From IMG/VR virus record IMGVR_UViG_3300045988_180190: a DNA stretch of 64,000 nt. One strand, written 5' to 3'. Positions 588-31,516 of the stretch are shown here, piece by piece (the stretch's first letter is position 1; each line of letters opens with the position of its first letter). Origin of the DNA: a virus. Both the position numbers and the translations under genes were made by a program. The notes beneath the pieces were generated by a model. The model had not been told where the DNA came from, searched no databases, and saw only the letters and a program-made list of their open reading frames with translations.

Positions 588-3500
588 CTACGAATTTCTT
601 ATGCACACAAACACGTGCCCCCATTGGCAGTCTCCGTCAAAGTCCGCGCCAAGTCCAGTGCTAACCAAAGGCGGAAGCAATATATTCTTGCCCTCATGAA
701 ATACAGGCTTAAACCCAAGCATATTATATTTATGCCAAGCTGGAGCTCTGTCAGACACTATCCATCTTCCCTTGTCCACAATTGACTGCATTACATTTTT
801 AGCCAAATCTGTTTTATTTTTTATATGCGTTAATGCTTCCTTTGGAGAAAAACCGCGCTTAACGAGCTCACCCTGAATATATGGAGCATACAGCTCTAAG
901 CCCATTTCGTAGGGTAGTCCAAGCTCATCCATAGATATCTCGGGATTAGCATCAATAACTCCTCTTGCGGAGAAGTCAACAGGTTTACTAATAATATTTC
1001 TATTCCACTGAGAAAATTTTGAAGTTCCCCCAATGATTTTCTGTAAAAATCCGGATACTCCCCTTTGCTTTAATTTTCTGCTATTAGGTTCACCGAAACC
1101 ATATAATGCCTTAAGTGATTTATAAACATTAATTGCATTTTTATTTGCCTCTTCATCACCCAACTCTTCTCGAATTTCTTTTTGTGTATGCGCAGTATTC
1201 AGCATATCCTGATAAAGTTCGTTTGCATCCCCTGGAAGAAATGTACTATCCCCCATAATGGCATAAGGTCTAAACTTAGGAGGTATCACTGGAACCTTAG
1301 ATATCATATATTCCTCTGGACTCATCTTATTTCTTTTTAATCCGTCCAAAGCTAAAATACGATTTAAAGCCTGTTGCTTCTTAGATTTAGGTCCATGACT
1401 AAAATCTTGTTTAGCCTGCTCTAGATCTCTATCTATATTTATATCCTTTAAAGCCTTATACAAAGCTTCTGTTCCAGTTCCGTATTTACGCAGTGTTTCA
1501 TTTCCTGTAATAATATCATTAAAGTCTTTTCTTGTTATACCAAGTAAAGAAATTATTGTGTCTTCAAATGCGGGATTTGGGTAATGCTTATCTAAAGTTA
1601 TTTTACCCCATTTATTAGCTACAGTTAATGTGGGATCAAATAATCCACCTTGCAGTGGACGCATGGTTTTAAAGTCCACAATGTTATCATTCTCAATTTC
1701 GATAGGATTAAATTTATCAAAATCTTTATCCGTGAACGGAGTAGCTTGAAGAGATTCTCCATTGTCAGCTCGCTTAGTATTAATTCCGGCACCTTGCATC
1801 AAGGCTATATATTTATCCCATATAAACGGAGATTTCCTAGCTAAAGTTGGTGTCTGCCCCATTCTTACTTGGCGCCAATAATCGTCATTACGCTGACCCC
1901 TTAATAAGATCGCATCTTTAATTACATTATATGCACCAGAAGATAGAAGAGCATTTACAGTTAAACCAGACATTCTTTTAGATCTCATACCCTCTTCTCC
2001 TCCCTTTACTGGAATCTCATTCTGGTCATAAATGCCTTGACCTCTTGAAGATAATTTTGAATCAGAGGTATGATGCAGCTTAAGAAAATAAGCATTGCCG
2101 ACTGTAATAGGTTGGTCTAATTCTCTATCAATAAGTGGATCATACACAGGCTCTGTATCTGATAAATTATTCTTTTTCAATTCACCCTCTACAAAGTCAT
2201 ACCATTTTTCTGTATTCTTATTGAATGTAGGCAATTTATATTTCTTTCCAGTCTTTTCCGCAACCTTACCAAGCATTGACTCATACATCATATTAGCATT
2301 AACACGTGATACAAGTCCTAGCTGATTAAATAACACATCCAAAGGTCTGCCATCTCTAGTTCTAGGCATATCTTTTTGCGGAATTATATGTGATACAGTT
2401 AACTTATTTCCGGAGCGAGTTGAATTGCCCGAGAATATAGGTTTATTGTGATATCTGGTAAGAATTATATGATATCTGCTATTTACTCCTATGCATACAA
2501 CGGGTCCATGATAATTCTTTAAGGTAAAGCATTTTTCTGTATCTAATTTAGTAAAACATACATCTTTGCCATTTGAATTAAGCAAGGTATCTTCACCGTT
2601 TATTTCACCGTTTATTTCACCGTTTATTCCACCGTTTATTCCACCGTTTATTTTACTGTTGATAGAAATAAATTGATTATCTACACATAATGTTAGCATT
2701 GCGGCAGGTAGTATATGCACTTCACCAGTATCTACGACAGGACATCTGTGATTACTTGTAACGAGTTGCGCCACATTATCATCTTCATATCCATATAAAT
2801 CCTCCCCAAGTAACATATATTTATGTATCTCAGTAACGTCATGCCAGTCCCACCTAATATCCTTTAAATCAGAAGCTACAATAAGTGAGGCAACCCTATC
2901 TCCTAATTTTACATTATTTATATTCTTCCATCCCTCTGAAGTAAGAATATCCGTATCCGGGTGATAGCACATCTTATCTCCCTCCCTCATTGGAGCAAAT
3001 GTTTCTACATTAACCTTATAGCCATCCTTAGTCTTTACTACATCTGTTACTACACCTGGAGTATCGTGATCCCAAACTTGAGAGGCATCGACTCTTGTGG
3101 ATTTTAAATACTTAGAGAGTTTACCTAGATTTGCATCATTTGCGGACACGGTCCTTGCTCTAGTAGAAAGAATCAATGGGTCACCAGGATTAACTGTGGA
3201 ACCAACTCTAATAATTCCATTATCATCCAAGTTAGCCATTTGCTCCTTCTTAAACTTGTCAGGATAAAATGTTTTAAAGTGCTCTTTTCCAGTTTTAAGC
3301 CCCTTATCGTTCTCCTCCATATATTGATACATATGTTGAGAAGTCATCCTATTAGCAAAATCCTCTGACACAACAACTGCGTCATCCATAGACCAACCTT
3401 TATAAGGAACAAATCCAACCCTTGCATTTAGCCCCATATTCAATGTGCCATTATCATCGGTAAAATTTGTTTTAGCCAATACTGGATTTCTCTTAGTTGA

Positions 3501-3983
3501 AGAGTCTCTAGATATTTTATCCCCAGGTTTGACTAAAGGATAATTGGTTAACATTGTTTTGCGATTAAAAGCAAAATTGTTATATAAATTTTTTACCTTG
3601 GTCTGACCTTTGTCATTTTTATACTTAATATAATCCGGAGAAACCTCCAGAATATCTGCAGAATTATCATCGTCATCTAAAGTTACAACACCTGTACGTT
3701 TTCCCATAAAATCCTCATAGGACTCATCTTTATCTGAATTTTTCAAGGACTGTACATTAGGGGATTCACCATTTTTAAGGGGCAATGCTTGAGTAACGAA
3801 TTTATGTTCGTAAAATCCCCTGGCTGCAGTTACAGAATTTTGCATGGGTAATAAATTTAATGTATTCCCAAAAAATTGATTGGGAGATACAAACTCATAC
3901 CTTACTTTATCCGTATCATCAGGTTCCTCAGTTATTACACCGCGTTTTAAAACAGGTATCATTTTATTATTTGATAAAGACAT
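588..3983 (-). CDS. multisubunit RNA polymerase, beta C-terminal half fused to beta-prime N-terminal part, intein-containing
   Basis: Beta motifs: LLPMQNSVTAARGFYEHKFVTQALPL (cf. FLEHDDANRALMG.NMQRQAVPL), GDKM[intein]STRSGNKL (cf. GDKMAGRHGNKG), GNAYFLKLHH. Beta-prime motifs: VPVIPPKFRP, KPVDFSARGVI, DRAPAWHKYN, GADFDGD. Confidence 0.9.
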   Translation of the reverse strand: MSLSNNKMIPVLKRGVITEEPDDTDKVRYEFVSPNQFFGNTLNLLPMQNSVTAARGFYEHKFVTQALPLKNGESPNVQSLKNSDKDESYEDFMGKRTGVVTLDDDDNSADILEVSPDYIKYKNDKGQTKVKNLYNNFAFNRKTMLTNYPLVKPGDKISRDSSTKRNPVLAKTNFTDDNGTLNMGLNARVGFVPYKGWSMDDAVVVSEDFANRMTSQHMYQYMEENDKGLKTGKEHFKTFYPDKFKKEQMANLDDNGIIRVGSTVNPGDPLILSTRARTVSANDANLGKLSKYLKSTRVDASQVWDHDTPGVVTDVVKTKDGYKVNVETFAPMREGDKMCYHPDTDILTSEGWKNINNVKLGDRVASLIVASDLKDIRWDWHDVTEIHKYMLLGEDLYGYEDDNVAQLVTSNHRCPVVDTGEVHILPAAMLTLCVDNQFISINSKINGGINGGINGEINGEINGEDTLLNSNGKDVCFTKLDTEKCFTLKNYHGPVVCIGVNSRYHIILTRYHNKPIFSGNSTRSGNKLTVSHIIPQKDMPRTRDGRPLDVLFNQLGLVSRVNANMMYESMLGKVAEKTGKKYKLPTFNKNTEKWYDFVEGELKKNNLSDTEPVYDPLIDRELDQPITVGNAYFLKLHHTSDSKLSSRGQGIYDQNEIPVKGGEEGMRSKRMSGLTVNALLSSGAYNVIKDAILLRGQRNDDYWRQVRMGQTPTLARKSPFIWDKYIALMQGAGINTKRADNGESLQATPFTDKDFDKFNPIEIENDNIVDFKTMRPLQGGLFDPTLTVANKWGKITLDKHYPNPAFEDTIISLLGITRKDFNDIITGNETLRKYGTGTEALYKALKDINIDRDLEQAKQDFSHGPKSKKQQALNRILALDGLKRNKMSPEEYMISKVPVIPPKFRPYAIMGDSTFLPGDANELYQDMLNTAHTQKEIREELGDEEANKNAINVYKSLKALYGFGEPNSRKLKQRGVSGFLQKIIGGTSKFSQWNRNIISKPVDFSARGVIDANPEISMDELGLPYEMGLELYAPYIQGELVKRGFSPKEALTHIKNKTDLAKNVMQSIVDKGRWIVSDRAPAWHKYNMLGFKPVFHEGKNILLPPLVSTGLGADFDGDCQWGHVFVCIRNS
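2424..2969 (-). mobile_element. mini-intein (182 aa) in the beta GDKM/RHGNKG motif
   Basis: Starts at Cys339 (CYHPDTDILTSEGWK). Block B is LVTSNHRCPV. Ends FSGN followed by Ser521. Removing it restores GDKM-STRSGNKL. Confidence 0.8.
2593..2652 (-). repeat. 5 x 12-nt tandem repeat encoding (ING[G/E])5 inside the intein
   Basis: tcaccgtttatt x3 then ccaccgtttatt x2 on the plus strand. Confidence 0.9.
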
Positions 3984-4042
3984 ATCAACATATTCAACTA
4001 TTTAGCCCCATAGTTCAAGCAATTTTATTAGATGTTATAGCT

Positions 4043-4082
4043 AAAAAAATACACAACCGGTGGATTTCCACCGATTGTGTAT
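4043..4082 (-). terminator. hairpin terminator (family 1)
   Basis: ATACACAACCGGTGG/CCACCGATTGTGTAT stem, then T7 on the minus strand, then AGCTATAAC. Confidence 0.75.
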
Positions 4083-4088
4083 TGCGAG

Positions 4089-4598
4089 CTATTTCCATTT
4101 TTGGGCTGTGAGCTCGATAATTTTCTTTACATTTCCTGGAAGTTGCCCGAACTTCAGGAAATCCTCTAGAGAGGAGGTACTGTATCCTAATGCAACCTCG
4201 ACCCCCCATACGGAGGATTTATAGATTGTCAACGTACGGGGGGCTAGCCCATGTATGACGACGTAGTCGTCGTTGGAGTTTATGTCTGCAAAACCACCAA
4301 CATAAAACTCTCCGCCTAGGTTGGCTTCTCCGCCGATGTGGGCATTATCGCCCACGCTTACGCTTCCGCCCACGTGGGCATTGCCGTTAACGACAGCATC
4401 GCCCTTTATTACGGCCGCGCCGTGTATCTTGGCGTTGCCTTGGATTAGGGCCCAATCTTCTACGCGTGCGTAAGCGGTGACGTACGCGTTTTCCCTGACC
4501 GTTGCGGATGGTCCGATGAAAGCGTCGTGATTGACGCTCGCATTCTCTAGTACTTTTCCCTCTATTACGGGATTTCCATATTTTACATGCTCGTTCAT
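4089..4598 (-). CDS. beta-helix (hexapeptide/bactofilin-like) repeat protein, cassette cargo
   Basis: Repetitive [VI]xGxAxVxG pattern (AKIHGAAVIKGDAVVNGNAHVGGSVSVGDNAHIGGEANLGG). Paralogue of 6716..7234. GC-rich. Confidence 0.7.
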   Translation of the reverse strand: MNEHVKYGNPVIEGKVLENASVNHDAFIGPSATVRENAYVTAYARVEDWALIQGNAKIHGAAVIKGDAVVNGNAHVGGSVSVGDNAHIGGEANLGGEFYVGGFADINSNDDYVVIHGLAPRTLTIYKSSVWGVEVALGYSTSSLEDFLKFGQLPGNVKKIIELTAQKWK

Positions 4599-4733
4599 AT
4601 CAGTAATCTATTTACCTACATCTAAATTTCCCATTTCGCACAGAATATGCGAAATGTCTAGTTGTAGATAAAATATTCCTTTCTAAATATATATACCACA
4701 ATTATATAAATATTTTCATGGGATGTTATAGCT
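4599..4733 (-). promoter_or_regulatory. cassette module A: extended -10-like TGGTATATA + leader stem-loop
   Basis: Conserved block repeated at five other sites. Stem-loop at 4632..4656. Confidence 0.6.
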
Positions 4734-4773
4734 AAAAAAATACACAACCGGTGGAAATCCACCGGTTGTGTAT
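4734..4773 (-). terminator. hairpin terminator (family 1)
   Basis: Near-identical to 4043..4082, with T7 on the minus strand. Confidence 0.75.
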
Positions 4774-4780
4774 TGTATGA

Positions 4781-5119
4781 CTAAAATTTCGCGTCGTGCA
4801 AATCAACGCTATCCAGGTTTACCCCTGCAAGGTTTGCGCCTTGCAGGTTGGTCCCTGTCAACTTTGCGCCCTTCAGGTTGGTCCCCGTTAACTTTGCGCC
4901 CCTCAGGTCAGCGCCTGAGAGGTCTGCATCTGTTAAGTCGGCCCTACTTAGGTCGGCCCCTATGAGGTTCACACCTCTGAGATTTGACTCCATCAAGAGA
5001 GCCAACTCGAGGTTGGCCCCCTCGAGGTCCGCACCCTCGAAGTTTGCCTCTGGTAGGATCACAAACCGCATGTCTGCATTCCTGAGATTTGCATTTTTAA
5101 AATTGAGCCTATTTTCCAT
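4781..5119 (-). CDS. pentapeptide-repeat protein
   Basis: A(D/N)LxG-type repeats throughout (ADLSRADLTDADLSGADLRGAKLTGTNLKGAKLTGTNLQGANLAGVNL). Confidence 0.85.
   Translation of the reverse strand: MENRLNFKNANLRNADMRFVILPEANFEGADLEGANLELALLMESNLRGVNLIGADLSRADLTDADLSGADLRGAKLTGTNLKGAKLTGTNLQGANLAGVNLDSVDLHDAKF
4844..4903 (-). repeat. 2 x 30-nt tandem duplication inside the pentapeptide gene
   Basis: caggttggtccctgtcaactttgcgccctt / caggttggtccccgttaactttgcgcccct. Confidence 0.85.
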
Positions 5120-5253
5120 AACTATAATCTATTTACCCACACCTAAATTTCCCTTCTTACACAGAATATGTAAGAAGTCTAGACATAGGTAAAATATCCT
5201 TTCTAAATATATATACCACAATTATATAAATATTTTCACGGGATGTTATGACT
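5120..5253 (-). promoter_or_regulatory. cassette module B
   Basis: Same conserved block. Stem-loop at 5153..5177. Confidence 0.6.
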
Positions 5254-5296
5254 AAAAAAACAAATCAAGGACCTATTCGAGGTCCTTGATTTGTTT
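5254..5296 (-). terminator. hairpin terminator
   Basis: CAAATCAAGGACC/GGTCCTTGATTTG stem overlapping the last codons of 5273..5644, followed by T7. Confidence 0.7.
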
Positions 5297-5644
5297 GTAC
5301 ACTTTATAAGTCTTTTGTAACTCATAAAGTGATCTATCCTCTTCTTCGCGGGCGCGTATGCGCCTGCCAAGAGATGAAAAATCGCACTCCCTATACATCC
5401 ACGCGGCCCTTCTGGACCCGGACTTAACGATTGTCTCAACCGGGAAGTTCGGTGGGAACTTAATCCCACTTTGCCCCAACTCATAGATACACTGGGAGAC
5501 CAGTGTATCTATCTTATTGGTGTGGTCCGTAAACACGGATAGGAACGAGAGGCTGAAGGCCTCTGCGTAGTTCTGAAGTCGAACTATAAGTTCTACTACA
5601 AGGTTGGACAAAAGAGAATTATATTTATTCGAGTCAATTTCCAT
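5273..5644 (-). CDS. hypothetical protein, cassette cargo
   Basis: 123-aa ORF bounded by module and terminator. No motif recognised. Confidence 0.6.
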   Translation of the reverse strand: MEIDSNKYNSLLSNLVVELIVRLQNYAEAFSLSFLSVFTDHTNKIDTLVSQCIYELGQSGIKFPPNFPVETIVKSGSRRAAWMYRECDFSSLGRRIRAREEEDRSLYELQKTYKVYKQIKDLE

Positions 5645-5776
5645 AATAAAAATTATATTAACTTCACCTATTTCCCATTTATAAACAGTTTATTTATAAA
5701 TGTATGTCAAAGTTAATATTCCTTTCTAAATATATATACCACAAGTATATAAATATTTTCATAGGATGTTATAATT
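5645..5776 (-). promoter_or_regulatory. cassette module C (diverged)
   Basis: Same architecture. AU-rich stem-loop at 5676..5702. Confidence 0.5.
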
Positions 5777-5813
5777 AAAAAAAAAGACCACCAGGGAATA
5801 ATCCCCAGTGGTC
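5777..5813 (-). terminator. hairpin terminator
   Basis: GACCACCAGGG/CCCCAGTGGTC stem followed by T9 on the minus strand. Confidence 0.7.
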
Positions 5814-5822
5814 TCGTGGAAC

Positions 5823-6158
5823 TTACTTGTACGTGAGCAAGTAAATCCCAAAACCATCTATCTTCGGAACAAACAGGACGACCTGTTTGACACGTATTCC
5901 GTTGACAGAGACCCCATTCTCCCAGGGGGTTTTTTTAACCGTGATTTTATTCTCACGGGGGAGAATATACCTTCCGCAAATAGCGCTTGCCATATGTGCG
6001 GCTCTTAATGAGCTGAACATTAGCATAGCACCATTACGGACTAGGCGCTTGAACCGCGCCTCCCCAAGCGGGGATATTTTTAATTCGCCCTCATAGAGGG
6101 ATATAGAATTCTTGTCGGTCACTATTATATTATCAATATTCATAATTGTTCCTTTCAT
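5823..6158 (-). CDS. hypothetical protein, cassette cargo
   Basis: The track ORF starts at 6185 inside the conserved ATGGGAAATTTAG module sequence. The internal Met (MKGTIMNID) at 6158 is the more likely start. Confidence 0.55.
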   Translation of the reverse strand: MKGTIMNIDNIIVTDKNSISLYEGELKISPLGEARFKRLVRNGAMLMFSSLRAAHMASAICGRYILPRENKITVKKTPWENGVSVNGIRVKQVVLFVPKIDGFGIYLLTYK

Positions 6159-6669
6159 TTGGAATTTTATTTCTAAATTTCCCATTTTATATGATTACAT
6201 AAAATGTCTAGAAATAATAAGCTAGCTTCTAATACAAGCTGAAGCTAGCTGGTGTGTAACCGTACAAGAATATAAAAGTGGCAAAGGAGAGAATTGCTCT
6301 CCTTCCCCACCCCTGAGGCATTGCCCCTTGGCAATCCTCAGGAGCCCCGCAATACACAACTTCAGCATAGGATAGCTGTCAGAGACACTCATGTCTAAGA
6401 GAGCCCTTTCCTTATATGTGCACACGGGGCAACCAACAACAGGTATTCCTCCCTGTTAGGTATTGTCCTGCTGGATACAATATACGGTCTCCAGAAGAAT
6501 ACCACCTCTTCTCCTAATTAGGAAAAGAGGTTTTCCTCTCCTTAAGGTACCAACCGCTTACCGCGATTGATACGCAGTTCGGAAAGGAATTTCCGTGAAG
6601 GATCTAAAATATCCTTTACTAAATATATATACCACAAAAGGTATATTTTTTTCATGTAGTGTTATAGCT
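6159..6669 (-). promoter_or_regulatory. cassette module D, split by an insertion of about 400 nt
   Basis: Promoter-proximal part at about 6600..6669. Stem-loop at 6183..6206. Foreign sequence lies between them. Confidence 0.55.
6207..6600 (-). ncRNA. candidate structured RNA / leader element, class unknown
   Basis: Chain of strong hairpins (e.g. CCTGAGGATTGCC-aagg-GGCAATGCCTCAGG, AAGGAGAG-caatt-CTCTCCTT, AGCTAGCTTC...GAAGCTAGCT). G-U pairs favour the minus strand. No credible ORF. Confidence 0.35.
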
Positions 6670-6709
6670 AAAAAAATACGCAACCGGTGGAAATCCACCG
6701 GTTGCGTAT
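6670..6709 (-). terminator. hairpin terminator (family 1)
   Basis: Same as 4734..4773 but with a compensatory A-T to G-C pair (ATACGCAACC/GGTTGCGTAT). Confidence 0.75.
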
Positions 6710-6715
6710 TGTGGG

Positions 6716-7234
6716 CTATTCTTGCCATTTTTTGGCAATGGCCCTAACTACTTCCCTTACGCTCTGGGGGAAGTCCCCAAAGTGTAAGAAAGTTTGTAGG
6801 GCCTGCGACGTACCCTCCGTCGCAACCTCAATGCCCCAGGTCGAGGATTTGTAAACCGCCAGGGGACACGGGGTCAACCCCTGGACGATGACTATGTCAT
6901 CGTTGGAGTTTATGTCGGCGTTTCCGCCGATAAAGCCCACACCACGTAGGAGGGCGTTCCCACCTATGTGGGCGTTTCCTCCTATTACCATATGGCCGCC
7001 TATAACGGCGTTACCATCTATGACGGCATCGCCCCTGAGCGACGCTGACTCACAGACCTCGGCGTTCCCGCCGACGATAGCCCTGTCTTCCAGGGTCGCG
7101 TCGTCCCATATAGACGCGTTGCCCTGGACGACGACCTGTTGCCCCACGTAAGCGTCATGATTGACGCTCGCGTCGTCTTTTATTGTTCCCTCAATAAGAG
7201 GGCAGCCGTACATAATGTGTTTATTGTTATCCAT
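6716..7234 (-). CDS. beta-helix repeat protein, paralogue of 4089..4598
   Basis: Alignable over its full length (GGNADINSNDDIVIVQGLTPCPLAVYKSSTWGIEVA vs GGFADINSNDDYVVIHGLAPRTLTIYKSSVWGVEVA). Confidence 0.7.
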   Translation of the reverse strand: MDNNKHIMYGCPLIEGTIKDDASVNHDAYVGQQVVVQGNASIWDDATLEDRAIVGGNAEVCESASLRGDAVIDGNAVIGGHMVIGGNAHIGGNALLRGVGFIGGNADINSNDDIVIVQGLTPCPLAVYKSSTWGIEVATEGTSQALQTFLHFGDFPQSVREVVRAIAKKWQE

Positions 7235-7368
7235 AACTATAATCTATTTACCTACACCTAAATTTCCCTTCTTACACAGAATATGTAAGAAGTCTAGTTG
7301 TAGATAAAATATCCTTTCTAAATATATATACCACAATTATCCGTATTTTTTCACAGGATGCTATAGCT
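7235..7368 (-). promoter_or_regulatory. cassette module E
   Basis: Same conserved block. Stem-loop at 7268..7292. Confidence 0.6.
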
Positions 7369-7396
7369 AAAAAAAAGAGAAGACCACAGTCTTCTC
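7369..7396 (-). terminator. hairpin terminator (family 2)
   Basis: GAGAAGAC-caca-GTCTTCTC followed by T8 on the minus strand. Confidence 0.7.
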
Positions 7397-22291: not shown

Positions 22292-22294
22292 TTG

Positions 22295-23108: not shown

Positions 23109-24896
23109 TTATCCATTTGGATTATACCCATTTTGAGCTTTCATCGCAGCATAGCCCTGGCTACGCATTTGATTGCGCTCCTGGTCCATATAAGCTCTTA
23201 CCATTGAATATAATGTGAAATCCTGTTGCTCAAGAGCTTGAAGTTGTTGTCTTGATTGTCCTACGGGCATAGCTAGAAATTGCTGTGCTATACCCATAGC
23301 TCTCTGCTCCATCGTGAGTACAGAGGTACTAGGAGGTGTGCCCCCAGAAGCCAAAGAATTGTCTTGCAATTCTGCTTCAAGATTCTGACGAGCTTCTTGT
23401 TCTTTTTGAATCTCCTCTTGAACCTTTTGCTGTTCAACTTGTATCTGAGCATCCTCACGCTGCCTTTGTGTAATAGAGCTGATTGGATCTGTGATACCAA
23501 GCGGCTCCATAAAGGTTTTGTATGGAAGCAGTCCTTGTGTACCAAGACTGATCTTTGTTGCTTGGGTGTTTACGTCGTCTATAATTTTGGGTTGTGGCAA
23601 CTCTACTTCAACAGGTTTTTCGTTAAAAATCTGTTGTGTTTTCTTTAAAACCCATTTACCTAACTTATTGAATTGGTTATAAATATACCAAAAATTATTC
23701 TGCAAAAGCTTAAGAGAAGTAGGCAAAATCTGTAAGTCTAAAGACAGATCGTATAACCTAGCGGGGAATCCAGCACCATTTAATAGCTCTTCTTTCTCGG
23801 CATTAATGATGTCCTTGCTTATATATTGTTTACCTGTTCCCCCTAGTTCTTGATAGCTCAAAGCAAAGGGAGCCACCTGCCAAGTTGTGGGATCCGCCCT
23901 ATAGTTAGCGATCATTCTGGTAATTTGGTCTTTAAACATTACTGCATCAAATGATTGTGCAATACTGTCGTTACCCCCTTGTAGTGCATGGGGGTCCATA
24001 GATATAACACGCAGAGGAGTTACATAATCTAAAGCCAACATCTCATCGGCTTTAGAATAAAGCAACATTTTATAAATTACTCGAAAATTTAGTAAAAATT
24101 CTGATATTCCCCAACCATCTCGAGATAACCCGGAGATGGCAGGACCCCTAAAATGGAAAAGCTCACCTTTGTTAAACTTAAAATCCTGGTGGTTATTCAG
24201 TGCCGTGAGCATTGGTCTTGGAATCGTATTGATAACATCTAGCATTCCTCTCTCCACCTGCTCTCTTACATCTTGGTCAAATTTCCATATGTAAGTATTC
24301 TCTCCATTAATACGGCTATGAATAATGCGAATATACCTAGGGTCTATCAGCATTAATCGAAAATTTTCCTTACGTTTATCTATCTTGTCAATAAATTGAC
24401 AAGTAATTGATCCATTAAAGTTATTTTGTATATCTGGTACGGTAAACGTTAGATCCTTGGGATTAAATTTTATCTGGTCTAAATACCCATTAAAATTAGC
24501 AAATGTATAAAATTTCCCCTTAAACTCTGGACGTGGGTCTAATAGGATACGTTCAAATGGTACATAGAGTCTAACAAAAGCATTACCATAACATCCCCAC
24601 TCATCTCCTATATTCTGCATTACTTGTTTTATATCCAGAATATCGTTAAAGAATGCTCTTAATGATTTCTGAGTAGACTCGTCACAATCTTTGAATTCAA
24701 AATCTGAAATAAAAAATGAAGTTAACCTTCGCACAACTTGACGAAATATCGGAACATTTGCATAGAGCCATTGACATAATTCAAACCCCTCGCTTAAAGT
24801 TCTAGGAAACCAAGCCGAAGAAGGCATGAAGACAGGATCCCTAAACTTTGAAGCATAAGGAGAAAAGAAATCTGATAATATTGGTCTATCTGCCAT
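23109..24896 (-). CDS. large virion-module protein, possibly portal
   Basis: Suggested only by its size (595 aa), its position among putative virion genes and its Q/E-rich C-terminal coil. No diagnostic motif. Confidence 0.3.
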   Translation of the reverse strand: MADRPILSDFFSPYASKFRDPVFMPSSAWFPRTLSEGFELCQWLYANVPIFRQVVRRLTSFFISDFEFKDCDESTQKSLRAFFNDILDIKQVMQNIGDEWGCYGNAFVRLYVPFERILLDPRPEFKGKFYTFANFNGYLDQIKFNPKDLTFTVPDIQNNFNGSITCQFIDKIDKRKENFRLMLIDPRYIRIIHSRINGENTYIWKFDQDVREQVERGMLDVINTIPRPMLTALNNHQDFKFNKGELFHFRGPAISGLSRDGWGISEFLLNFRVIYKMLLYSKADEMLALDYVTPLRVISMDPHALQGGNDSIAQSFDAVMFKDQITRMIANYRADPTTWQVAPFALSYQELGGTGKQYISKDIINAEKEELLNGAGFPARLYDLSLDLQILPTSLKLLQNNFWYIYNQFNKLGKWVLKKTQQIFNEKPVEVELPQPKIIDDVNTQATKISLGTQGLLPYKTFMEPLGITDPISSITQRQREDAQIQVEQQKVQEEIQKEQEARQNLEAELQDNSLASGGTPPSTSVLTMEQRAMGIAQQFLAMPVGQSRQQLQALEQQDFTLYSMVRAYMDQERNQMRSQGYAAMKAQNGYNPNG

Positions 24897-25116
24897 GTTC
24901 GTCTTCTGTGGTTGATTCCCTTGGCTGCGCTAAAATATCTATGAAATCTGCCAATAATTCCTTAGAGGTAGGATCTTCTAAGTTTTTTCTATCTTCAGAT
25001 TCTGTAATATTGCTAATTTGCCCATTGGTCAAATTATTAAGAACCTCCTGCGGGTCTTTCTGTACTACGCCTTTTTTAATCATATGAGTTTTGAATTGAA
25101 AATAATACAACAACAC
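24886..25116 (-). CDS. hypothetical protein
   Basis: 76-aa ORF abutting the next gene. Confidence 0.4.
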   Translation of the reverse strand: MLLYYFQFKTHMIKKGVVQKDPQEVLNNLTNGQISNITESEDRKNLEDPTSKELLADFIDILAQPRESTTEDEHGR

Positions 25117-25144
25117 AAATAAAGCTATGTCAACAAAAAAGGCA

Positions 25145-25777
25145 CTAGTCTGTACTGCTTCGTTCCGCAGGTATATAAAATATAAGAATGCTATATACCA
25201 TATCTCCTATGTCCAACGTTATCGCAGAGGATAATACTCTTAAATTAAACGAAGTGAAATCACCTTCTGCCTCACCCGGTAAATTTATAATAACTTCTGT
25301 GCCTGGTGCGATCTCTAAGTTAAAGTCCGAGGGATCTACTACAAGCACACATAAATTACCGTCTAAATGAAATTTTAGAAATTTAAAATTATAATTCACC
25401 AAATTCGGAATGATAAATATCCCAGAAGACTTTGGAGGACATCCGCTATTCGGTTGCTTAGAGTCAGAGGGAATAGATTCTAAATGAGAGAGTAGGGCGT
25501 CCTTAATATCAAATACATCTTTGTGGATAATATTAAGACGCTCCACTAGCATAGAATCATCGAATTTTTCCAATTTAGACTCAGGATGGCTCAAGGGAAT
25601 TGGTGTGGTATTGGTTGGTGTCTCTACTTTGGTATACTCAGGGGAAGGATCCACGGGAAAATTCTTAATAGTTACCCTGCTCTTGACATCTACTGGTTGG
25701 ATAGTCTTTGAGATATTAGCAAAAATATCTAATGGAGGAATGGTGTTATTCTGCGAGGAATCCATTGTACTGATCAA
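25145..25777 (-). CDS. hypothetical protein
   Basis: 210-aa ORF. ATGA overlap with the upstream gene. Confidence 0.6.
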   Translation of the reverse strand: MISTMDSSQNNTIPPLDIFANISKTIQPVDVKSRVTIKNFPVDPSPEYTKVETPTNTTPIPLSHPESKLEKFDDSMLVERLNIIHKDVFDIKDALLSHLESIPSDSKQPNSGCPPKSSGIFIIPNLVNYNFKFLKFHLDGNLCVLVVDPSDFNLEIAPGTEVIINLPGEAEGDFTSFNLRVLSSAITLDIGDMVYSILIFYIPAERSSTD

Positions 25778-26394
25778 ATTGGTTTAACTAAGGTGGTGTT
25801 TAAGTCTATTATTCTTAAATACTTTAAAATTATGTCATATGTCAAGCAGTCATATGCTAAATCTGTGAAATTTTCTACAGGAATCGTATGATCCGCAAGA
25901 CATATATATAACTTATTGTGCCACAACTTGAAATAGATATAAAGTATTTTACCAGGAGATAAATGAATACTTAATTCTGCATGTTTTTTATCCCCATAAA
26001 TGGTAAGATCCATTCTTATGTCTGGAAACTCTCTTGAAAAAAATTTATGTAAAAAACTTAAATTGAGCAAAAAATCCCCATAGCTATAAACAAGGTACTT
26101 AAAAAATAAATTTAAATTATTTTTATCTACTAGATGCTCTGGATTAATTAAATCTGTTATGGGATTAAATGGAACTGTTGTCTTTGAGGGGGTAAGAATG
26201 AAGCTATTTGGATTTAATCCAGTGGATTTAAATATTTTCTCTAGAAGATACAAAGAAGGGGTATCCCTGCATTTAAAATAGTAAATAATATTTCTACTGA
26301 GTCCTATTGATTGTAAATAAGACCGCAATGACATTTTTTTAGTTTTAGCTAAAAACTTTAATGCTGAGTCTAATTTTGGTATATCTACTAACAT
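25774..26394 (-). CDS. putative helix-turn-helix regulator
   Basis: MSLRSYLQSIGLSRNIIYYFKCRDTPSLYLLEKIFKSTGL is XRE-like. The track start at 26415 lies in the terminator T-run, so the Met at 26394 is preferred. Confidence 0.4.
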   Translation of the reverse strand: MLVDIPKLDSALKFLAKTKKMSLRSYLQSIGLSRNIIYYFKCRDTPSLYLLEKIFKSTGLNPNSFILTPSKTTVPFNPITDLINPEHLVDKNNLNLFFKYLVYSYGDFLLNLSFLHKFFSREFPDIRMDLTIYGDKKHAELSIHLSPGKILYIYFKLWHNKLYICLADHTIPVENFTDLAYDCLTYDIILKYLRIIDLNTTLVKPI

Positions 26395-26403
26395 AACAGA
26401 CGC

Positions 26404-26442
26404 AAAAATGCACACACTGCAAGACTTATCAAGCAGTGTGTG
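26404..26442 (-). terminator. hairpin terminator
   Basis: CACACACTGC...GCAGTGTGTG followed by T5 on the minus strand. Confidence 0.6.
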
Positions 26443-26475
26443 CTTAATGAGGTACAGAACAAAAAGGGTTTGAAA

Positions 26476-26691
26476 CTACTTTGCGGAAGAAAGAGTTTCT
26501 CTTATGGCTTTTTTGCAAGCCTCAACGTTTTGATTATAGGCGTCTTGCACATTATCAAAATGTGCTGAAGCTATTTTTGTAACTTCAGGGACTTGCTCTT
26601 TTGAAGCACCTAAAATTTTACATTGATTCTTAAAACCAAGCACATAAGCTTGCTTTATCTGCTTAAGCATTTTATTAAATTTATTGTCCAT
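26476..26691 (-). CDS. hypothetical protein
   Basis: 71-aa ORF. Confidence 0.5.
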   Translation of the reverse strand: MDNKFNKMLKQIKQAYVLGFKNQCKILGASKEQVPEVTKIASAHFDNVQDAYNQNVEACKKAIRETLSSAK

Positions 26692-26727
26692 AGAATTTTT
26701 TATTATTCAATTAAGCAAAATATTAGA

Positions 26728-28389
26728 TTAAACGTCAATAAAAAAGTTCAAAGTCTTTGTTATACCTAAAGTCTTATCCATTACAAAACATATCTGCCTA
26801 GGACGACTACTTAAATTTAAATTGTCGGCGTACTCATCAGAAGGCGTTAATGTAGGTAATTGGATGAACTCAAATGAAGACATTTCCTTCTGATTATAGT
26901 GGTGGCGATCCCCCATAAAGAAATATCTATTAATTATTGGTCCCCTAAACTTAGACACCTTATCTAATAAAAGCTTCTGAACATAATTTTCTTTGCTCTT
27001 ATCGTCATTCGGAACTTTGCTAGGGAATCTTGCAGCTGCGCCATGCTCTATAACGCATGCGTTGCATCCAAGTTGAAACATTAACCATCGCGATGAAGAA
27101 ATTTCAAAGTCTATTATATCTTTAAACATCTGCTCGAGACATGTAAATAAAACCCAGTCTCCGAATGAATCATGATTACCGCTAACTGCATAAACCTTTA
27201 TTCTGGAAGTCCCTTTCCATATTGAGGACAGCTGCTGTAAGAAATAGGAAATGGACTCCAATGCAATCTTGAATTGAGTTACGCCCTTGGGATTTGTAAT
27301 AAGTTGAGTTCCTTTATCTGTAAAACCAGTAATAGAATGTAGGATATCCCCCAAGGATAAAACAATACAATTTTTCGGCTTAACCCTCATATTTTGAAGT
27401 TCAGATATAATCTGTGCAATATAGCTGTCTACAGCCTGCTTTGTACTATCAATAGTCCAGTCCTTTTCGGAATAAAAAACATTGTTCTTATCTGAAAATG
27501 AACCAAAATGAACATCGGATAGAGTAGCTACGAATGTCTGATCCTCATTAAATGTTGAATCACCTTGAGTAGAAATGCAACTAGAGGGAATATCTGAGGG
27601 CAAAACCTTGGGGAGTTTAAGAGTGGATAGTACATCCTTAATTGGGTTATAGACGCACTGCTCAAATTGAATCCACTTATTCGCATTTAACTGGATCTCT
27701 TTCCACTGTTGGTGGTTATATTTTTCAGCTACCCTAAATTTGCGTAAAGAAGCTAAATCCTCTACAACTTTATCGTCATCATTTATTTCTGACAAATAGG
27801 AAGATGTTACTGGAAGAGAATTGTGTCTAAACCTTAGCTTATGAAGAACCTTTTCTAGTATGAAGGTGGGTATCTTATGTTTTAAAGCTATCTCAGCAAC
27901 TGTTTGGGGGTTATTGTCAAAATTTGAGTAGTCTTGGAGAATAGCGAGAAGTTGTGTCTTCTTAATTGTTATTACATTAGCGATATTAGATACATTAGTA
28001 AAATCAAACACATAATCGTCTGTATATCGATTATACAGTACGCCTTCGGCTTCAACTATGTAACCTCCATCATCTTTTTCACCCGAAGGTTTATTTGTTT
28101 CGTCAATTTCCTCAACTTCTCCACGCTTAATGAGTCTGGGATCAGTGGTTGACCACATATCCATAAAAGACTTATAAGAACCCCAATGTGTTTCTATATA
28201 AGTGCAAGAGGGTAGAATATTGTTATATTCTTTTCTAAGCTCCCTATATTTACGTCTGGGTATATATGTTTTTGTTGCTAAAAAACCAATTTCAGGATAC
28301 TTCAAACATATTGTACCCTTAATTTGAGCAATAATTGATATTAATTCTTTTCTCCTTTTATTATTCATCATTGTTTTAGTGTTGTACAT
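26728..28389 (-). CDS. calcineurin-like metallophosphoesterase (SbcD/Mre11-like C-terminal domain)
   Basis: LSDVHFG, LGDILH and SGNHDSFG motifs in order. Confidence 0.7.
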   Translation of the reverse strand: MYNTKTMMNNKRRKELISIIAQIKGTICLKYPEIGFLATKTYIPRRKYRELRKEYNNILPSCTYIETHWGSYKSFMDMWSTTDPRLIKRGEVEEIDETNKPSGEKDDGGYIVEAEGVLYNRYTDDYVFDFTNVSNIANVITIKKTQLLAILQDYSNFDNNPQTVAEIALKHKIPTFILEKVLHKLRFRHNSLPVTSSYLSEINDDDKVVEDLASLRKFRVAEKYNHQQWKEIQLNANKWIQFEQCVYNPIKDVLSTLKLPKVLPSDIPSSCISTQGDSTFNEDQTFVATLSDVHFGSFSDKNNVFYSEKDWTIDSTKQAVDSYIAQIISELQNMRVKPKNCIVLSLGDILHSITGFTDKGTQLITNPKGVTQFKIALESISYFLQQLSSIWKGTSRIKVYAVSGNHDSFGDWVLFTCLEQMFKDIIDFEISSSRWLMFQLGCNACVIEHGAAARFPSKVPNDDKSKENYVQKLLLDKVSKFRGPIINRYFFMGDRHHYNQKEMSSFEFIQLPTLTPSDEYADNLNLSSRPRQICFVMDKTLGITKTLNFFIDV

Positions 28390-28395
28390 GGTTAA

Positions 28396-29553
28396 TTATT
28401 CTGGAAATTTTACAATATTATCTTCAATCTCGTCAGGGGTCATCCATACCTTCCTACCCGTTTTCCTATCCCTAAGCAAAGTGTACATTTTACCGTTTTT
28501 CCCCAACCTGGTCATAGAAGCTAAACGTACGTCTACACCAATCTTTTCTGAATTTCCCGTCCAGTAAGGAATTCCATCTGGTCCATATCGCACTACGAAC
28601 ATTCCACCCGATATTTTTAGACACCATACTTTTCCTGTAAACGATTTTGTGTAGCAGTTATCTGAAGTAAAACGTAGTTCCTCCTTGCATATATCTTGTT
28701 GGACTGAAAATAAAAATGTATTATCGGATGCTCTAGCTGTAATATCCTTAGCTAATATAACCTCATAATTTAAATCCTTTGCTAAATCCGGAGTTGTTAC
28801 TAAGATGCGATGATCCGGTGTAGTTTCCTGAAATATGATTCCGTTGTCTATACCCACGATATTACCCACGTAATCTTTAAGGATAATCTCTTCGGGCTCT
28901 GTAAATCCAATAAGCTTAGAGTCATGTTTCCAAAATCCTATCTTATCGCTAAGTGTAATATCCTTTATAGATTTAAAACCAAATTCAGTTAATACCTCAT
29001 ACAATGGATTAAATACTATACATTCCGGACCTACCACAGCGTCAATAACTCCAAACTGACTTGGATGCACATTTTGCGCTTCTTCTGAGACCAAATCAGA
29101 GGAGGACACACCCCCAGGACCAAAAACTGTCACGCGTGACTGCTGATCCATATTATATATGGGGTTAATTTCCTCAGAAGGAAGAGAGAGTGGATTTCCT
29201 ATTATATGCCCTGTAGCATATGAGTCAAATGCACCCGTTGGAAAATATTTTAAACTTTTAGTTTTGTTTAGCTTAGACATAAGCATATTCCTAACCTTAC
29301 CAGCGTCTAAGCGTACTCTTTCGGCTATCAGGTCATCGGGCCCAAGAATTTTTTTAAATCTCAGTGAGTCTCTTTCATCTGAATCAGTTTCACCTCGGTT
29401 TATTGCTAGTAATTTTTGAGTTGCCTTAATAAGTGACCCTACACCTACAGAAGCGCGTCTTGTATTCTTGTCCATCTCAGCAACTTGAATCTTCGGAAAC
29501 GGAGAAGACGCTAATTTTATTTTACCTATGTTATTCATTTTTTTAATTTTCAC
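28396..29553 (-). CDS. RNA polymerase beta subunit, middle fragment, intein-containing
   Basis: VFGPGGVSS..EAQNVHPSQFGVIDAVVGPE[intein]SEKIG parallels GPGGL..RDVH.SHYGR.CPIETPEGPNIG. Confidence 0.8.
   Translation of the reverse strand: MKIKKMNNIGKIKLASSPFPKIQVAEMDKNTRRASVGVGSLIKATQKLLAINRGETDSDERDSLRFKKILGPDDLIAERVRLDAGKVRNMLMSKLNKTKSLKYFPTGAFDSYATGHIIGNPLSLPSEEINPIYNMDQQSRVTVFGPGGVSSSDLVSEEAQNVHPSQFGVIDAVVGPECIVFNPLYEVLTEFGFKSIKDITLSDKIGFWKHDSKLIGFTEPEEIILKDYVGNIVGIDNGIIFQETTPDHRILVTTPDLAKDLNYEVILAKDITARASDNTFLFSVQQDICKEELRFTSDNCYTKSFTGKVWCLKISGGMFVVRYGPDGIPYWTGNSEKIGVDVRLASMTRLGKNGKMYTLLRDRKTGRKVWMTPDEIEDNIVKFPE
28552..29022 (-). mobile_element. mini-intein (157 aa) in the beta ETPEG motif
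   Basis: Starts at Cys178 (CIVFNPLYEVLTEFGFK). Block B is TTPDHRILV. Ends WTGN followed by Ser335. Confidence 0.8.
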
Positions 29554-29567
29554 CGTTAGCTATAATC

Positions 29568-30734
29568 TTACTGTAGGTATTGCTTTGCCTGTCTTCCAAT
29601 ATCGTCATACCCCATGGCATTCGTTTGAAAATTCGGAGTAAATCCCTGTGTTCTGGACCATTCGTCGAATAGTTTTGTGTAAACCGATTGTTGTTGGTCT
29701 CTAGGGGCTTGCTCTATCTGACTTACTAGTTGGGGATTTTCATTTAGATATTGTTGAAAACCTTGGTCTAACATACTATCGTATATTGCTTTACTATTAT
29801 CGTCCCCAAACAACCAATCCTGCGTATATCTTTTTACATCAGGATTATAAGCCAAAAAGTTTCTATAGTTCATATCGTTTTTATATGTCTGAGTTGGGGC
29901 TGTAGCAAACATGTCACCTCCAAACATAGAGCCGGTTAACGCTGCATTCCAAGCACGAGACCCCATAGATTGTCCTTTTCGAAAAACATCTACTGGAGAC
30001 TTTAACAGTGCCAATGGGTTAAGATAATAATGCACTAGATCATCTCCTATACCTCCCATAAACTTGGTAGTACCACCAACTGCTCTATTGACAAAATTAC
30101 CTGCGGTATTTCCTAATAGTCTGGGAGCCACCCTCCCTAACATACCGGCACCCGCTCTAGAAGCTAAGGATGTAGCCCCCCTAGCAAAAAATCCGCCTGT
30201 GCCACCAGTAGCCGCAATTGCAGCACCTGCGACAGCTCCTTTTGCACCTTTAGAGTATGTCTCATTTTGTAAATTTGATGCATCCCTAGCTGCATTTTGA
30301 GCCATCAAATCTCGGTCGTAGTAACCCTTATACTGATTTAGCCCAGAGGCATAATAAGCTAATTCCGGGTGCTCCTGTAACATTCTCTGTACCTTAGAAT
30401 GTGCCCCTATTCCCAAAGCATTTCGTACCCCCTGATATGCAGCCCTAGGAGCATTTCCAAGCATTCCAGCAGTCTGCCACCCCGTGTTAACCACGCCTTT
30501 TCCAAATCTCTTTAGCCAATTGTCTTTCTTTGGATCAACCTCAAAGACATTACCATCAGACATGTAATTAGTATTAAAATTCTCTAGTGCAAGTTCATCA
30601 ACATTTTGCTTAAAACTACGCACCAAATCTTTATTTTTTTGACCCCAAGCTTCAGCATCTTCTGCGGTAATAGTTTTAGGAGTGTAAAATTGTGGTGTAT
30701 TAGCAAATTTTTTAAACTGTGATATTCTTAACAT
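29568..30734 (-). CDS. glycine-rich protein between two RNAP fragments
   Basis: GAKGAVAGAAIAATGGTGGFFARGATSLASRAGAGMLG. Confidence 0.6.
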   Translation of the reverse strand: MLRISQFKKFANTPQFYTPKTITAEDAEAWGQKNKDLVRSFKQNVDELALENFNTNYMSDGNVFEVDPKKDNWLKRFGKGVVNTGWQTAGMLGNAPRAAYQGVRNALGIGAHSKVQRMLQEHPELAYYASGLNQYKGYYDRDLMAQNAARDASNLQNETYSKGAKGAVAGAAIAATGGTGGFFARGATSLASRAGAGMLGRVAPRLLGNTAGNFVNRAVGGTTKFMGGIGDDLVHYYLNPLALLKSPVDVFRKGQSMGSRAWNAALTGSMFGGDMFATAPTQTYKNDMNYRNFLAYNPDVKRYTQDWLFGDDNSKAIYDSMLDQGFQQYLNENPQLVSQIEQAPRDQQQSVYTKLFDEWSRTQGFTPNFQTNAMGYDDIGRQAKQYLQ

Positions 30735-30736
30735 AA

Positions 30737-31516
30737 TTAACCTAAATTTTTCAACTTTATATCCTCGTCAACCTGTTGACTATCAAAAGCCGACTTAAGA
30801 CCCTGAATCATTTCTTCTCTATTGGTAGCCGTCGCCATGCGTCTAGGAACTAGTTTACTATACACCTTGGTTAAAGCTCTAGGGTCATACTTACGCCTAT
30901 TTCTAATAAGAATATCGTCTCCCCAGGCCTTAGAAAGCTCATCATCAGATACTCCTAAATCGTGAAGCAGTGAATACAGGTTAGTACTAGACTGGCCTAT
31001 GTTTAGCTTATAAACTCCAGTTGCAGGATCTAAAGATATTCTATATCCATTTCCAGTGCCACGCTCTATATTAAATTGAGACTCTAGCTCTCCATTAGAT
31101 TTTCTTCTAGAATATATTCCGGGGCGCAATCTTAATTGTCTTAAAGTATTATACTCGTTTCCGTTATGGATAAAAGTTCCCCTCTCGGTATAATATGGTA
31201 CACGCATTAATGTTTTTCCCTTTACGGAATCTAAAAGTTTACCAGTGGTAGAATCGTATAAATAAAGATCCCCCTTCACAGGGTTAGATAAATACTGGTT
31301 ATTTAGTAATGCTTGTTTTTGCTCTTTAAATGTATATCTCTTTGGATTAGCTATACTTACATTCTTAACCTCAAGGCGAACCCCGCCATATTCCAATGGA
31401 AAACTATCCTGTAAGGCTGACTGTACCTTGGACTCTAGAGATGACCTTACATAATTACTATCATCTACTGAATAGGTCTCTCTTTGCAACGTAGTCTTAT
31501 CATCATCGTAAATCAT
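30737..31516 (-). CDS. RNA polymerase beta subunit, N-terminal fragment
   Basis: RGTFIHNGNEYNTLRQLRLRPGIY parallels G.FIINGAERV.VSQL.RSPGVY. Confidence 0.7.
   Translation of the reverse strand: MIYDDDKTTLQRETYSVDDSNYVRSSLESKVQSALQDSFPLEYGGVRLEVKNVSIANPKRYTFKEQKQALLNNQYLSNPVKGDLYLYDSTTGKLLDSVKGKTLMRVPYYTERGTFIHNGNEYNTLRQLRLRPGIYSRRKSNGELESQFNIERGTGNGYRISLDPATGVYKLNIGQSSTNLYSLLHDLGVSDDELSKAWGDDILIRNRRKYDPRALTKVYSKLVPRRMATATNREEMIQGLKSAFDSQQVDEDIKLKNLG

Follow-up and report, generated by a model that had tools for sequence, protein, structure and literature searches.

A phage RNA polymerase encoded by dispersed genes, with contiguous inteins and a predicted split intein at the beta' catalytic motif

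Multisubunit RNA polymerases (RNAPs) without alpha or omega subunits, encoded by dispersed genes, are known from phiKZ-like and AR9-like phages (PMC7824862, PMC7598289), the genomes of which exceed 200 kb and hold two sets of subunit genes, one enzyme being packaged. In these phages beta is made as two or three polypeptides, beta' is cut after the catalytic double-psi beta-barrel, and the cuts are plain subunit boundaries; the reviews of jumbo-phage RNAPs mention neither a beta-beta' fusion nor inteins (PMC7824862, PMC7598289). Uncultivated tailed phages, mostly below jumbo size and with recognisable beta and beta', have been described as mReC phages (Weinheimer & Aylward 2020, PMC7481178), in a study that required beta and beta' matches of at least 800 aa each and in which fusions, extra splits and inteins are unmentioned. 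A further architecture is that of Salmonella phage Arash and Vibrio phage D69, phages of the ~180-kb type to which Vibrio phages D148 and D181 also belong, in which the enzyme consists of two proteins: beta-beta'N, a single intein-free open reading frame (ORF) of 1525-1527 aa located by the portal gene, in which beta is fused in frame to the N-terminal part of beta', and a separate beta'C of ~606 aa. Here we analyse a 64-kb DNA window of an uncultivated ~165-kb phage (the whole stretch of 64,000 nucleotides from the IMG/VR virus record IMGVR_UViG_3300045988_180190) together with related contigs, where members of the same protein family as Arash gp206 and gp216 and their D69, D148 and D181 counterparts (~29-32% identity across all pieces) are distributed over dispersed genes, and where beta' appears to be cut at its catalytic motif by a split intein.

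The initial annotation viewed this locus in the frame of the phiKZ-like and AR9-like phages and proposed a beta subunit split three ways. The three ORFs are present on the minus strand, as are all polymerase ORFs and the other window features located below (coordinates refer to the window, which has ~36% GC and carries nearly every gene on that strand; beta and beta' residues are given in E. coli numbering). They are an N-terminal fragment of 259 aa (bN, 30737..31516), a middle fragment of 385 aa from a GTG start (bMid, 28396..29553; an alternative ATG at 29538, called in two independent assemblies, gives 380 aa), and a fusion ORF of 1131 aa (bC-b'N, 588-3983). In tblastn searches against GenBank phages all three fall on one gene, that of Arash gp206 (1525 aa) and its counterpart in D69, D148 and D181: bN residues 39-259 match gp206 34-259 (E=5e-25 against Arash, E=2e-30 against D69), bMid residues 21-178 match gp206 241-419 (2e-17) and its residues 329-385 match gp206 413-469, while fusion residues 26-326 match gp206 493-779 and residues 525-1119 match gp206 798-1439 (6e-74). 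In these terms bN represents approximately beta 1-380, strongly shortened, and the bMid exteins (gp206 241-469) represent beta ~383-620. Salmonella RpoB and RpoC are matched by tblastn in the same order, bN with RpoB 49-156, bMid with RpoB 425-605, and the fusion ORF with RpoB 648-940 and 1067-1294 and then RpoC 334-470 (35% identity, E=4e-21). By alignment, the three ORFs are collinear, non-overlapping pieces of one 1525-aa protein in Arash (gp206) and D69 (D69_0261). The three-way split thus stands, with Arash/D69-type phages and their single 1525-aa beta-beta'N replacing phiKZ and AR9 as closest relatives; among the tblastn matches listed there is no phiKZ or AR9 record, and no close homology to them was detected.

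The fusion ORF carries RNA_pol_Rpb2_6 (PF00562, E=1e-49), RNA_pol_Rpb1_1 (3e-8) and RNA_pol_Rpb1_2 (5e-13) in one frame, as the initial annotation had proposed, and lies 24.4 kb from bMid, with ~25 genes in between. Its first ~743 residues (1755..3983) form the C-terminal half of beta (beta ~648-1342) and include the beta catalytic barrel region (Rpb2 domain 6), recognised both by Pfam and by alignment with RpoB. Residues ~744-1118 (630..1754) form the N-terminal part of beta', the junction being approximate and taken from a multiple alignment, and end exactly at the catalytic motif GADFDGD (residues 1112-1118, aligned with RpoC 458-464; beta' D464). Arash gp206 likewise contains the fusion, with Rpb2_3, Rpb2_6, Rpb1_1 and Rpb1_2. 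Fused rpoB-rpoC genes of Helicobacter and Wolinella join two full-length subunits in frame, whereas here beta is truncated N-terminally and its fusion partner is no more than the first ~465-550 residues of beta'. The two smaller pieces are far less visible in family searches: Pfam is blank for both bN and bMid, PHROG is blank for bMid, and bN has a single weak PHROG match (PHROG 24349, E=9.5e-5). A megablast search of GenBank phages with 24 kb of the window gave no match, and the comparison had to be made at the protein level. An exact look-up of the fusion protein returned no record, that of bN returned independent contigs, and the homologues carry uninformative NCBI and JGI names, all being 'hypothetical protein' in public records.

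The dispersed arrangement is found again in nine further contigs, which come from at least three datasets: seven are from IMG/VR and represent two clades, and two are from independent Logan assemblies (ERR13994217 and ERR1110353, with an identical bN protein in the same context). The shared gene order is helicase, a 265-aa ORF, bN, a glycine-rich gene, bMid, an SbcD-like nuclease, two ORFs and the portal gene. The near-identical IMG/VR contigs (98-99% amino acid identity) are 110 and 164 kb long, and related contigs reach 164-174 kb. Relative to the window, clade 2 has 74% amino acid identity in bN and 81% in bMid (89% for the bMid extein); between the clades synonymous divergence (dS) of the pieces is saturated and nonsynonymous divergence (dN) is 0.09-0.2, which points to purifying selection. 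A search of large databases with the fusion ORF gave 604 homologues, more than 100 of which share its overall build and length. In a lineage of 44% identity, bC-b'N is a separate gene for 1189 aa with beta'C 4 kb downstream, and no gene for the beta N-terminus was found within 10 kb of bC-b'N; the beta cuts therefore predate the split intein.

The C-terminal part of beta' completes the enzyme. It is absent from the window by tblastn, and from the window and first flanks by a search with an Arash-type beta'C profile; the Arash/D69 beta'C alignment, used in a pattern scan, retrieved Arash relatives only, and a large-database search with the same alignment gave, among the matches listed, only relatives of at least 50% identity. 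Walking along a near-identical 164-kb IMG/VR contig located the b'C gene (L029 15124-17418, E=1e-64 against the Arash-type profile) ~14.5 kb downstream of the fusion gene, so that the beta' C-terminus which the initial annotation had left to be sought is now accounted for. It contains the bridge-helix and trigger-loop regions and, as in Arash and D69, is a separate beta'C with Rpb1_5. Taken together, the pieces and b'C cover beta and beta' once, in order and with no duplicated region, as judged from the alignments. In contrast to the single beta-beta'N gene of Arash and D69, beta-beta'N here is spread over four genes within ~33 kb, with b'C 14.5 kb further, and the enzyme contains four inteins, one of them split.

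The initial annotation overlooked that the fusion ORF does not stop at a plain subunit boundary. Its beta and beta' assignments hold, but it ends in what is predicted to be the N-terminal half of a split intein (IntN). Directly after ...LGADFDGD there is a 13-residue tail, CQWGHVFVCIRNS, followed by a stop codon (588..629). Nearly all of the ~55 closest homologues share its first seven residues, CQWGHVF (one has D for H), and the initial cysteine (Cys1) is retained in all of them while the distal tail varies. The partner, a gene for the C-terminal half (IntC) joined to the next part of beta', begins at the window edge, which cuts it after 15 codons (MQSIKNPELLNLPDI, 1..47). The full gene encodes 324 aa on related contigs (L009 14636-15610, L010 14388-15362): an IntC of 237 residues, ending with GYDLTVPGYETFINYSGIVLSN, is continued by an 87-aa beta' segment starting TMNVHVPALPEAQ. 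IntC blocks F and G read GYDLTVPGYETF...VLSN/T (a slash marks a splice junction here and below), and the junction with beta' reads VLSN/TMNVHVP. The 87-aa segment is in register with beta' from Q465 onward and with the C-terminus of Arash gp206, where beta' ends ~85-90 aa after DxDGD, the boundary also found here.

Several lines of evidence identify this partner as intein-derived. A search with the 324-aa protein gave 44 homologues, most of 310-365 aa, several with a precomputed Intein_splicing match. The IntC family profile matches solved inteins (5o9i, the TFIIB Mvu mini-intein, E=1.5e-8; DnaB; RadA) and then beta' 466-515. Its alignment to inteins of known structure spans from approximately intein residue 11-15 to the terminal Asn, and the partner ORF lacks the first ~11-14 residues. 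In an AlphaFold2 (AF2) model of the 324-aa protein (pLDDT 83), the top 40 Foldseek matches in the PDB are almost all inteins. The catalytic residues that are present are Cys1, the block F Asp (invariant), the terminal Asn and Thr+1. Of 33 IntC proteins, all 33 have both this Asn and Thr+1, whereas only 7 of 22 intein-free relatives have Thr at that position. Between clades the IntC part is 92% identical with a dN/dS ratio (omega) of 0.075, compared with 69% identity for the contiguous intein of bMid; omega of the whole IntC-beta' gene is 0.055.

The uninterrupted states of this site are also found. In distant relatives without the intein the site reads DFDGD[A/T/Q]MNxHxP, with 85-90 aa left before the C-terminus, and one homologue of 1917 aa (P0206) holds a contiguous version, with DFDGD, a 13-aa segment ending CIP, LITDDDPRAVYG, GYDLTVPGYETF...ILSN/TLNVHLP and a LAGLIDADG insert. 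Since insertion-free relatives, a contiguous version and a partner profile that begins where the tail stops are all present, the element is best explained, on sequence evidence, as an intein that entered the protein behind beta' D464 and was afterwards divided ~13 residues in (S1 position), an atypical split. We also considered that the 13-aa tail might be a degenerate copy of the next extein strand, as H-V stands at the same offset in both; this idea was rejected, because the homologue P0193 has a canonical CVIGDTKI there, P0206 holds both segments in one chain, and the partner ORF misses the start of the intein.

The two halves appear to be separate transcription units. A 20-bp hairpin followed by a T-run, resembling a terminator, lies directly after the fusion gene (523..566), and a second terminator-like hairpin (132-97) with a promoter-like TTGACA-16-CATTAT (87-60) lies just upstream of the IntC gene (60..132), these being consensus matches. 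Altogether the spacer of 540 nt between the fusion ORF and the IntC gene holds two or three terminator-like hairpins and the promoter-like site before the ATG. In clade 2 the IntC gene follows an NAD-ligase gene and is not adjacent to the fusion gene. The composition of the spacer and the non-adjacency in clade 2 lead us to predict that the halves are separately expressed. The spacer also contains, between the terminator-like hairpins, a match to the Rfam abiF RNA motif (RF03085, 167-204, 43.4 bits against a gathering score of 37). In two related contigs a 158-aa ORF lies between the halves (L010 13739-14215, L009 13752-14228), which is deleted in the window (~665 nt less); it has no endonuclease domain, and the locus is therefore no classic 'fractured gene' with a homing endonuclease.

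The closest described counterparts of this element are the naturally atypical split inteins VidaL, PolB16 OarG, AceL-TerL and GOS-TerL, in which natural IntN lengths are 15-37 aa (PMC13014065). Like these inteins and the 'fractured genes', the element has a very short IntN, a long IntC on another gene, an S1 split, a setting among viral metagenomic genes and, in some relatives, an extra ORF between the halves. In contrast to them, its host is RNAP beta' at DFDGD, its IntN of 12-15 aa (13 here) lies at or below the published range, block B is without His, and several sister lineages have no nucleophile at position 1. Nothing relevant on inteins or split inteins in phage RNAP subunits was found in a literature search that covered journals outside subscription.

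The three-ORF inventory of the initial annotation was correct as far as it went, and had overlooked that both bMid and the fusion ORF also carry contiguous inteins. Mini-intein 1 (157 aa, bMid residues 178-334, 28552..29022) reads VVGPE/CIVFNP...TTPDH...YWTGN/SEKIG. It lies between beta E565 and G566 in the ETPEG motif, is an exact 157-aa insertion relative to Arash and RpoB, and has Cys1, TxxH, the terminal Asn and Ser at +1. The segment had no Pfam match when searched in isolation, and its HINT assignment comes solely from its homology to the intein of the fusion ORF (hhalign probability 96.4%, E=1.3e-9). Mini-intein 2 (182 aa, fusion residues 339-520, 2424..2969) reads EGDKM/CYHPDTDIL...TSNH...IFSGN/STRSGNK and is located after beta M1066 (GDKM/AGRHGNKG). 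Intein-free alleles of the fusion (943-966 aa; P0181, P0191 and others) read exactly GDKM/STRSGNK, and other alleles carry at the same site a 378-aa intein with a LAGLIDADG endonuclease; across fusion-site inteins that are 34-97% identical, C1, T-x-N-H, N and S+1 are invariant. Mini-intein 2 has a weak Pfam Hint_2 match, and the top 50 Foldseek PDB matches of its AF2 model (pLDDT 68) are all HINT or intein domains. Both insertions in the window are accordingly classed, from their motifs, as class 1 contiguous inteins that are predicted to splice. A third, canonical mini-intein of 138 aa is found in b'C (QGGL/CLHQDTEV...LLSHN/SSKHEAGG; Pfam Hint 3.5e-5) after beta' M932, in the trigger loop. 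To judge from their sites, the inteins of bMid, bC and b'C must excise by protein splicing, which would restore ETPE-S, GDKM-S and QGGL-S, respectively.

Two minor observations concern inteins in this window. A tandem INGG/INGE peptide repeat, GGINGGINGEINGEING, is located inside mini-intein 2 (~2559-2621) and probably explains why near-identical homologues differ in length (1108-1131 aa); the fusion-site intein of the closest relative has 170 aa compared with 182 aa here. A further large intein, with an HNH endonuclease (Pfam Intein_splicing, HNH_3), interrupts the large subunit of ribonucleotide reductase (1380 aa, 44325-48467), which has a TSCPD domain at its C-terminus.

The two cuts within beta are of another kind. 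At bN/bMid (~beta 382) and bMid/bC (~beta 620-650) homology to Arash covers all but a few residues at each terminus and a Cys/Ser...Asn signature is absent, so that split inteins were rejected at these positions; from their sequences the cuts appear to be plain subunit boundaries, and bN, bMid and bC would then have to assemble non-covalently, as in the phiKZ and AR9 enzymes. Between bN and bMid the glycine-rich gene noted earlier is confirmed (29568..30734; 388 aa, 10% Gly with a G/A-rich core, N-terminal motif MLRISQFKKFA). It is in another frame than bN, from which a 2-nt spacer separates it, and is present at this position in nine of nine related contigs, being only 34-42% identical between clades (omega 0.19). 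Pfam and PHROG searches with it gave no match. It is not a polymerase piece; a homing endonuclease, an intron ORF and an intein were each rejected, since it has no such domain, lies in another frame and is a conserved, fast-evolving protein gene. Proteins with the N-terminal motif M..IS.F.KFA form a family, with this one member between bN and bMid and others downstream of the IntC gene (L010 16165-17322, 17383-18354 and 20092-20919), the first two of these being paralogues that share a glycine-zipper C-terminus, GWKGALGLGLGGLGLGALAKYL. We can only speculate that the common N-terminus might be a targeting or processing signal.

We consider it about evenly probable (roughly 0.5) that the locus encodes one RNAP of the Arash/D69 type from dispersed genes, whose contiguous inteins would excise and whose split intein would trans-splice to leave a four-chain enzyme. 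The large beta-beta'N protein is supplied by four genes (bN, 259 aa; bMid, 380-385 aa; bC-b'N, 1131 aa; and the 324-aa gene), and b'C, ~14.5 kb further, is the fifth gene of the enzyme. The IntN tail would provide the strand that completes the HINT fold of IntC, and Cys1, the terminal Asn and Thr+1 would carry out trans-splicing, joining ...GADFDGD to TMNVHVPALPEAQ... and recreating the C-terminus seen in Arash gp206. The expected junction is GADFDGD-TMNVHVPALPEAQADIK, and the ligated junction peptide would be GADFDGDTMNVHVPALPEAQADIK. The mature enzyme would then consist of bN, bMid, bC-b'N (~1023 aa) and b'C (~620 aa). As the weakest step, and by analogy with Arash, it may be packaged in the virion: gp206 and gp216 are among the most abundant proteins of purified Arash virions by mass spectrometry (PMC10585845).

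A number of observations weigh against parts of this reading. Block B of the split intein is invariantly TD(D/N)DPRA (here TDDDPRA), in which the conserved His is absent, and Ser replaces the penultimate His. Sister lineages with Q, A, F or M at intein position 1 keep the same module; the tails found among sister lineages (P0182-P0205) include QQLGHVYVCIPYEQK, AQLGYVYVCIAHKLK, FQLGHVYMLIKKS and MQINHVFVAIPKS as well as a canonical-looking CVIGDTKIIVEIPKS..., and the catalytic motif in some lineages is DYDGD or DYDGN. One protein with Met1 (P0194) shares a contig with a partner (P0262) still ending SN/T. Retention of the partner where position 1 is no nucleophile implies that the module can be maintained even when canonical splicing is impossible. 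The inteins are weakly supported by Pfam, and fold prediction and profile-profile comparison were used instead. As for packaging, it is carried over from a relative of only ~30% identity, and the Arash authors themselves allow for carry-over of abundant proteins (PMC10585845).

These points are the basis of the main alternative, in which the genes are the same and the split intein no longer splices. The tail and IntC would form a high-affinity docking pair, possibly with C-cleavage at Asn, that delivers the 87-aa beta' segment to the active-site barrel, and the mature enzyme would have five chains. Family-wide absence of the block B and penultimate His residues and the intact partner genes in lineages with Q, A, F or M at position 1 speak for such docking, and the strong purifying selection on IntC suits docking as well as splicing. 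It accounts poorly for the retention of Cys1 in all ~55 closest homologues despite the variable distal tail, and for the invariance of Asn and Thr+1 at an extein position that varies in intein-free relatives. In the established structure of RNAP, a HINT domain of ~250 aa that follows D464 without a gap would be placed at the catalytic loop, which is buried. Such an unexcised domain seems hard to tolerate and to reconcile with activity, which favours trans-splicing; moreover, splicing without the block B His has precedent, going by a title cited in PMC13014065. On this sequence-based evidence we regard trans-splicing in this lineage as slightly more likely and docking as a serious rival, plausible though falling short of an even chance. 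The more general proposal that a split intein with a 12-15-aa N-half is fixed after the beta' catalytic aspartates throughout a large uncultivated clade as an obligatory assembly device, either as the shortest natural trans-splicing intein or as a domesticated docking pair, we rate as nearly but not quite evenly balanced. If it is true, completion of the active site depends on a post-translational intein step, a possible point of regulation.

The remaining explanations are all improbable. The fragments could derive from two polymerases, a virion and a non-virion set, since phiKZ-like and AR9-like phages carry two split sets (PMC7598289). However, the pieces are exactly complementary, no further beta or beta' match was found in the 64-kb window or in the flanks examined (~20 kb beyond), and the parts of Arash (~80 kb) and D69 (50 kb) that were inspected have only a single annotated beta-beta'N gene and a single beta'C gene; the second set for which the initial annotation suggested a search is thus not in evidence, the two-enzyme phiKZ model is unsupported here, and we hold mixed origin to be very unlikely. 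A slightly lower probability still is given to rejoining at the RNA level by group I or II introns, trans-splicing or translational bypass. The split RNAP genes of jumbo phages have been proposed to originate from intron mobility (PMC7598289), and RNAP ORFs of zeta crAss-like phages are broken within DxDxD by an unexplained mechanism (PMC7886860); against this, the whole window has no Rfam intron match at or above the gathering score, bN and bMid are separated by a conserved gene that codes for protein, 24 kb and ~25 genes lie between bMid and bC, and a matching intein half is found on either side of the beta' cut, pointing to a solution at the protein level. Misassembly, frameshift errors or pseudogenes, suggested by the metagenomic source and by the lack of Pfam matches for bN and bMid, are the least probable of all. 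The same order and frames in nine further contigs, together with low dN at saturated dS, exclude an assembly artefact, the possibility raised by the initial annotation, as well as pseudogene decay; more than 100 homologous proteins have the same lengths, terminator-like hairpins and a promoter-like site separate the intein halves, and a frameshift cannot produce a separation of 24 kb.

The initial annotation had also supposed that this split pattern was undescribed. This is not so for the fusion junction: deposited genomes already contain beta-beta'N under the annotation 'beta subunit' or 'hypothetical', and the Arash paper calls gp206 'beta subunit' without comment on the fusion (PMC10585845). 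What is new in this window is that the protein is cut at additional points, that the pieces are dispersed and that a split intein lies at the active site, an arrangement of which we found no description. In comparison with the phiKZ/AR9 type, there is one set in the window and flanks examined, related contigs are 164-174 kb in place of >200 kb, and beta' is cut inside the barrel (D464) rather than after it. One homologous family thus spans from two proteins in Arash to five genes here, which widens the range of phage RNAP architectures, and its members provide a natural map of tolerated cuts and fusions (~beta 382, ~beta 620-650, beta' 464 and ~beta' 550). With an intein at each of four motifs of its catalytic centre (ETPEG, GDKM-AGRHGNKG, DFDGD and the trigger loop), the enzyme is an unusually dense case, and the occurrence of intein-free and endonuclease-bearing alleles at the same sites makes this a clean system for intein-host co-evolution. 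Natural IntN peptides of 12-15 aa are of the kind sought for semisynthetic protein ligation, the published natural ones having 15-37 aa (PMC13014065), and the split-intein family shows unusual chemistry, with no block B His and a variable residue 1. Polymerases of this kind are under-counted in viromes, because Pfam misses bN and bMid.

Around the polymerase genes the setting is mixed: besides the portal gene there are a replication/repair module, a resolvase-like gene and ORFs without annotation, a few of which have glycine-zipper motifs. Of the genes between the polymerase pieces, the portal gene (23109..24896; tblastn against Arash gp204 E=4e-37, D69 6e-35; weak PHROG portal match) is the only one firmly recognised as encoding a virion protein; its counterpart in Arash and D69 is found two genes upstream of their one polymerase gene. 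The placement of the polymerase pieces in a virion block, as proposed earlier, holds in part: the portal gene and a few neighbours with GxxxGxxxG agree with it, while most neighbours are unannotated and one flank is the replication/repair module. The evidence for a virion block consists of the portal gene and, by analogy, the virion proteomics of Arash.

Other neighbours include an SbcD/Mre11-like metallophosphoesterase nuclease directly downstream of bMid (26728-28389, PHROG 284, E=1e-26); D69 likewise has a metallophosphoesterase near the polymerase gene. The 265-aa ORF (31625-32422), without a family match, stands immediately upstream of bN in all related contigs and is 68% identical between clades; it is listed as a bare candidate for a polymerase accessory factor. 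A TnpB/IS605 OrfB gene (35464-36663, PHROG 506, E=1e-121) is found in the window and in one Logan assembly (L034). It is absent from three contigs that are otherwise 98-100% identical (L011, L012 and L033) and is therefore a recent, polymorphic insertion; clade-2 contigs have diverged copies elsewhere. Finally, the family A DNA polymerase (1309 aa, 40337-44266) combines an N-terminal domain of the uracil-DNA-glycosylase superfamily with 3'-5' exonuclease and polymerase domains.

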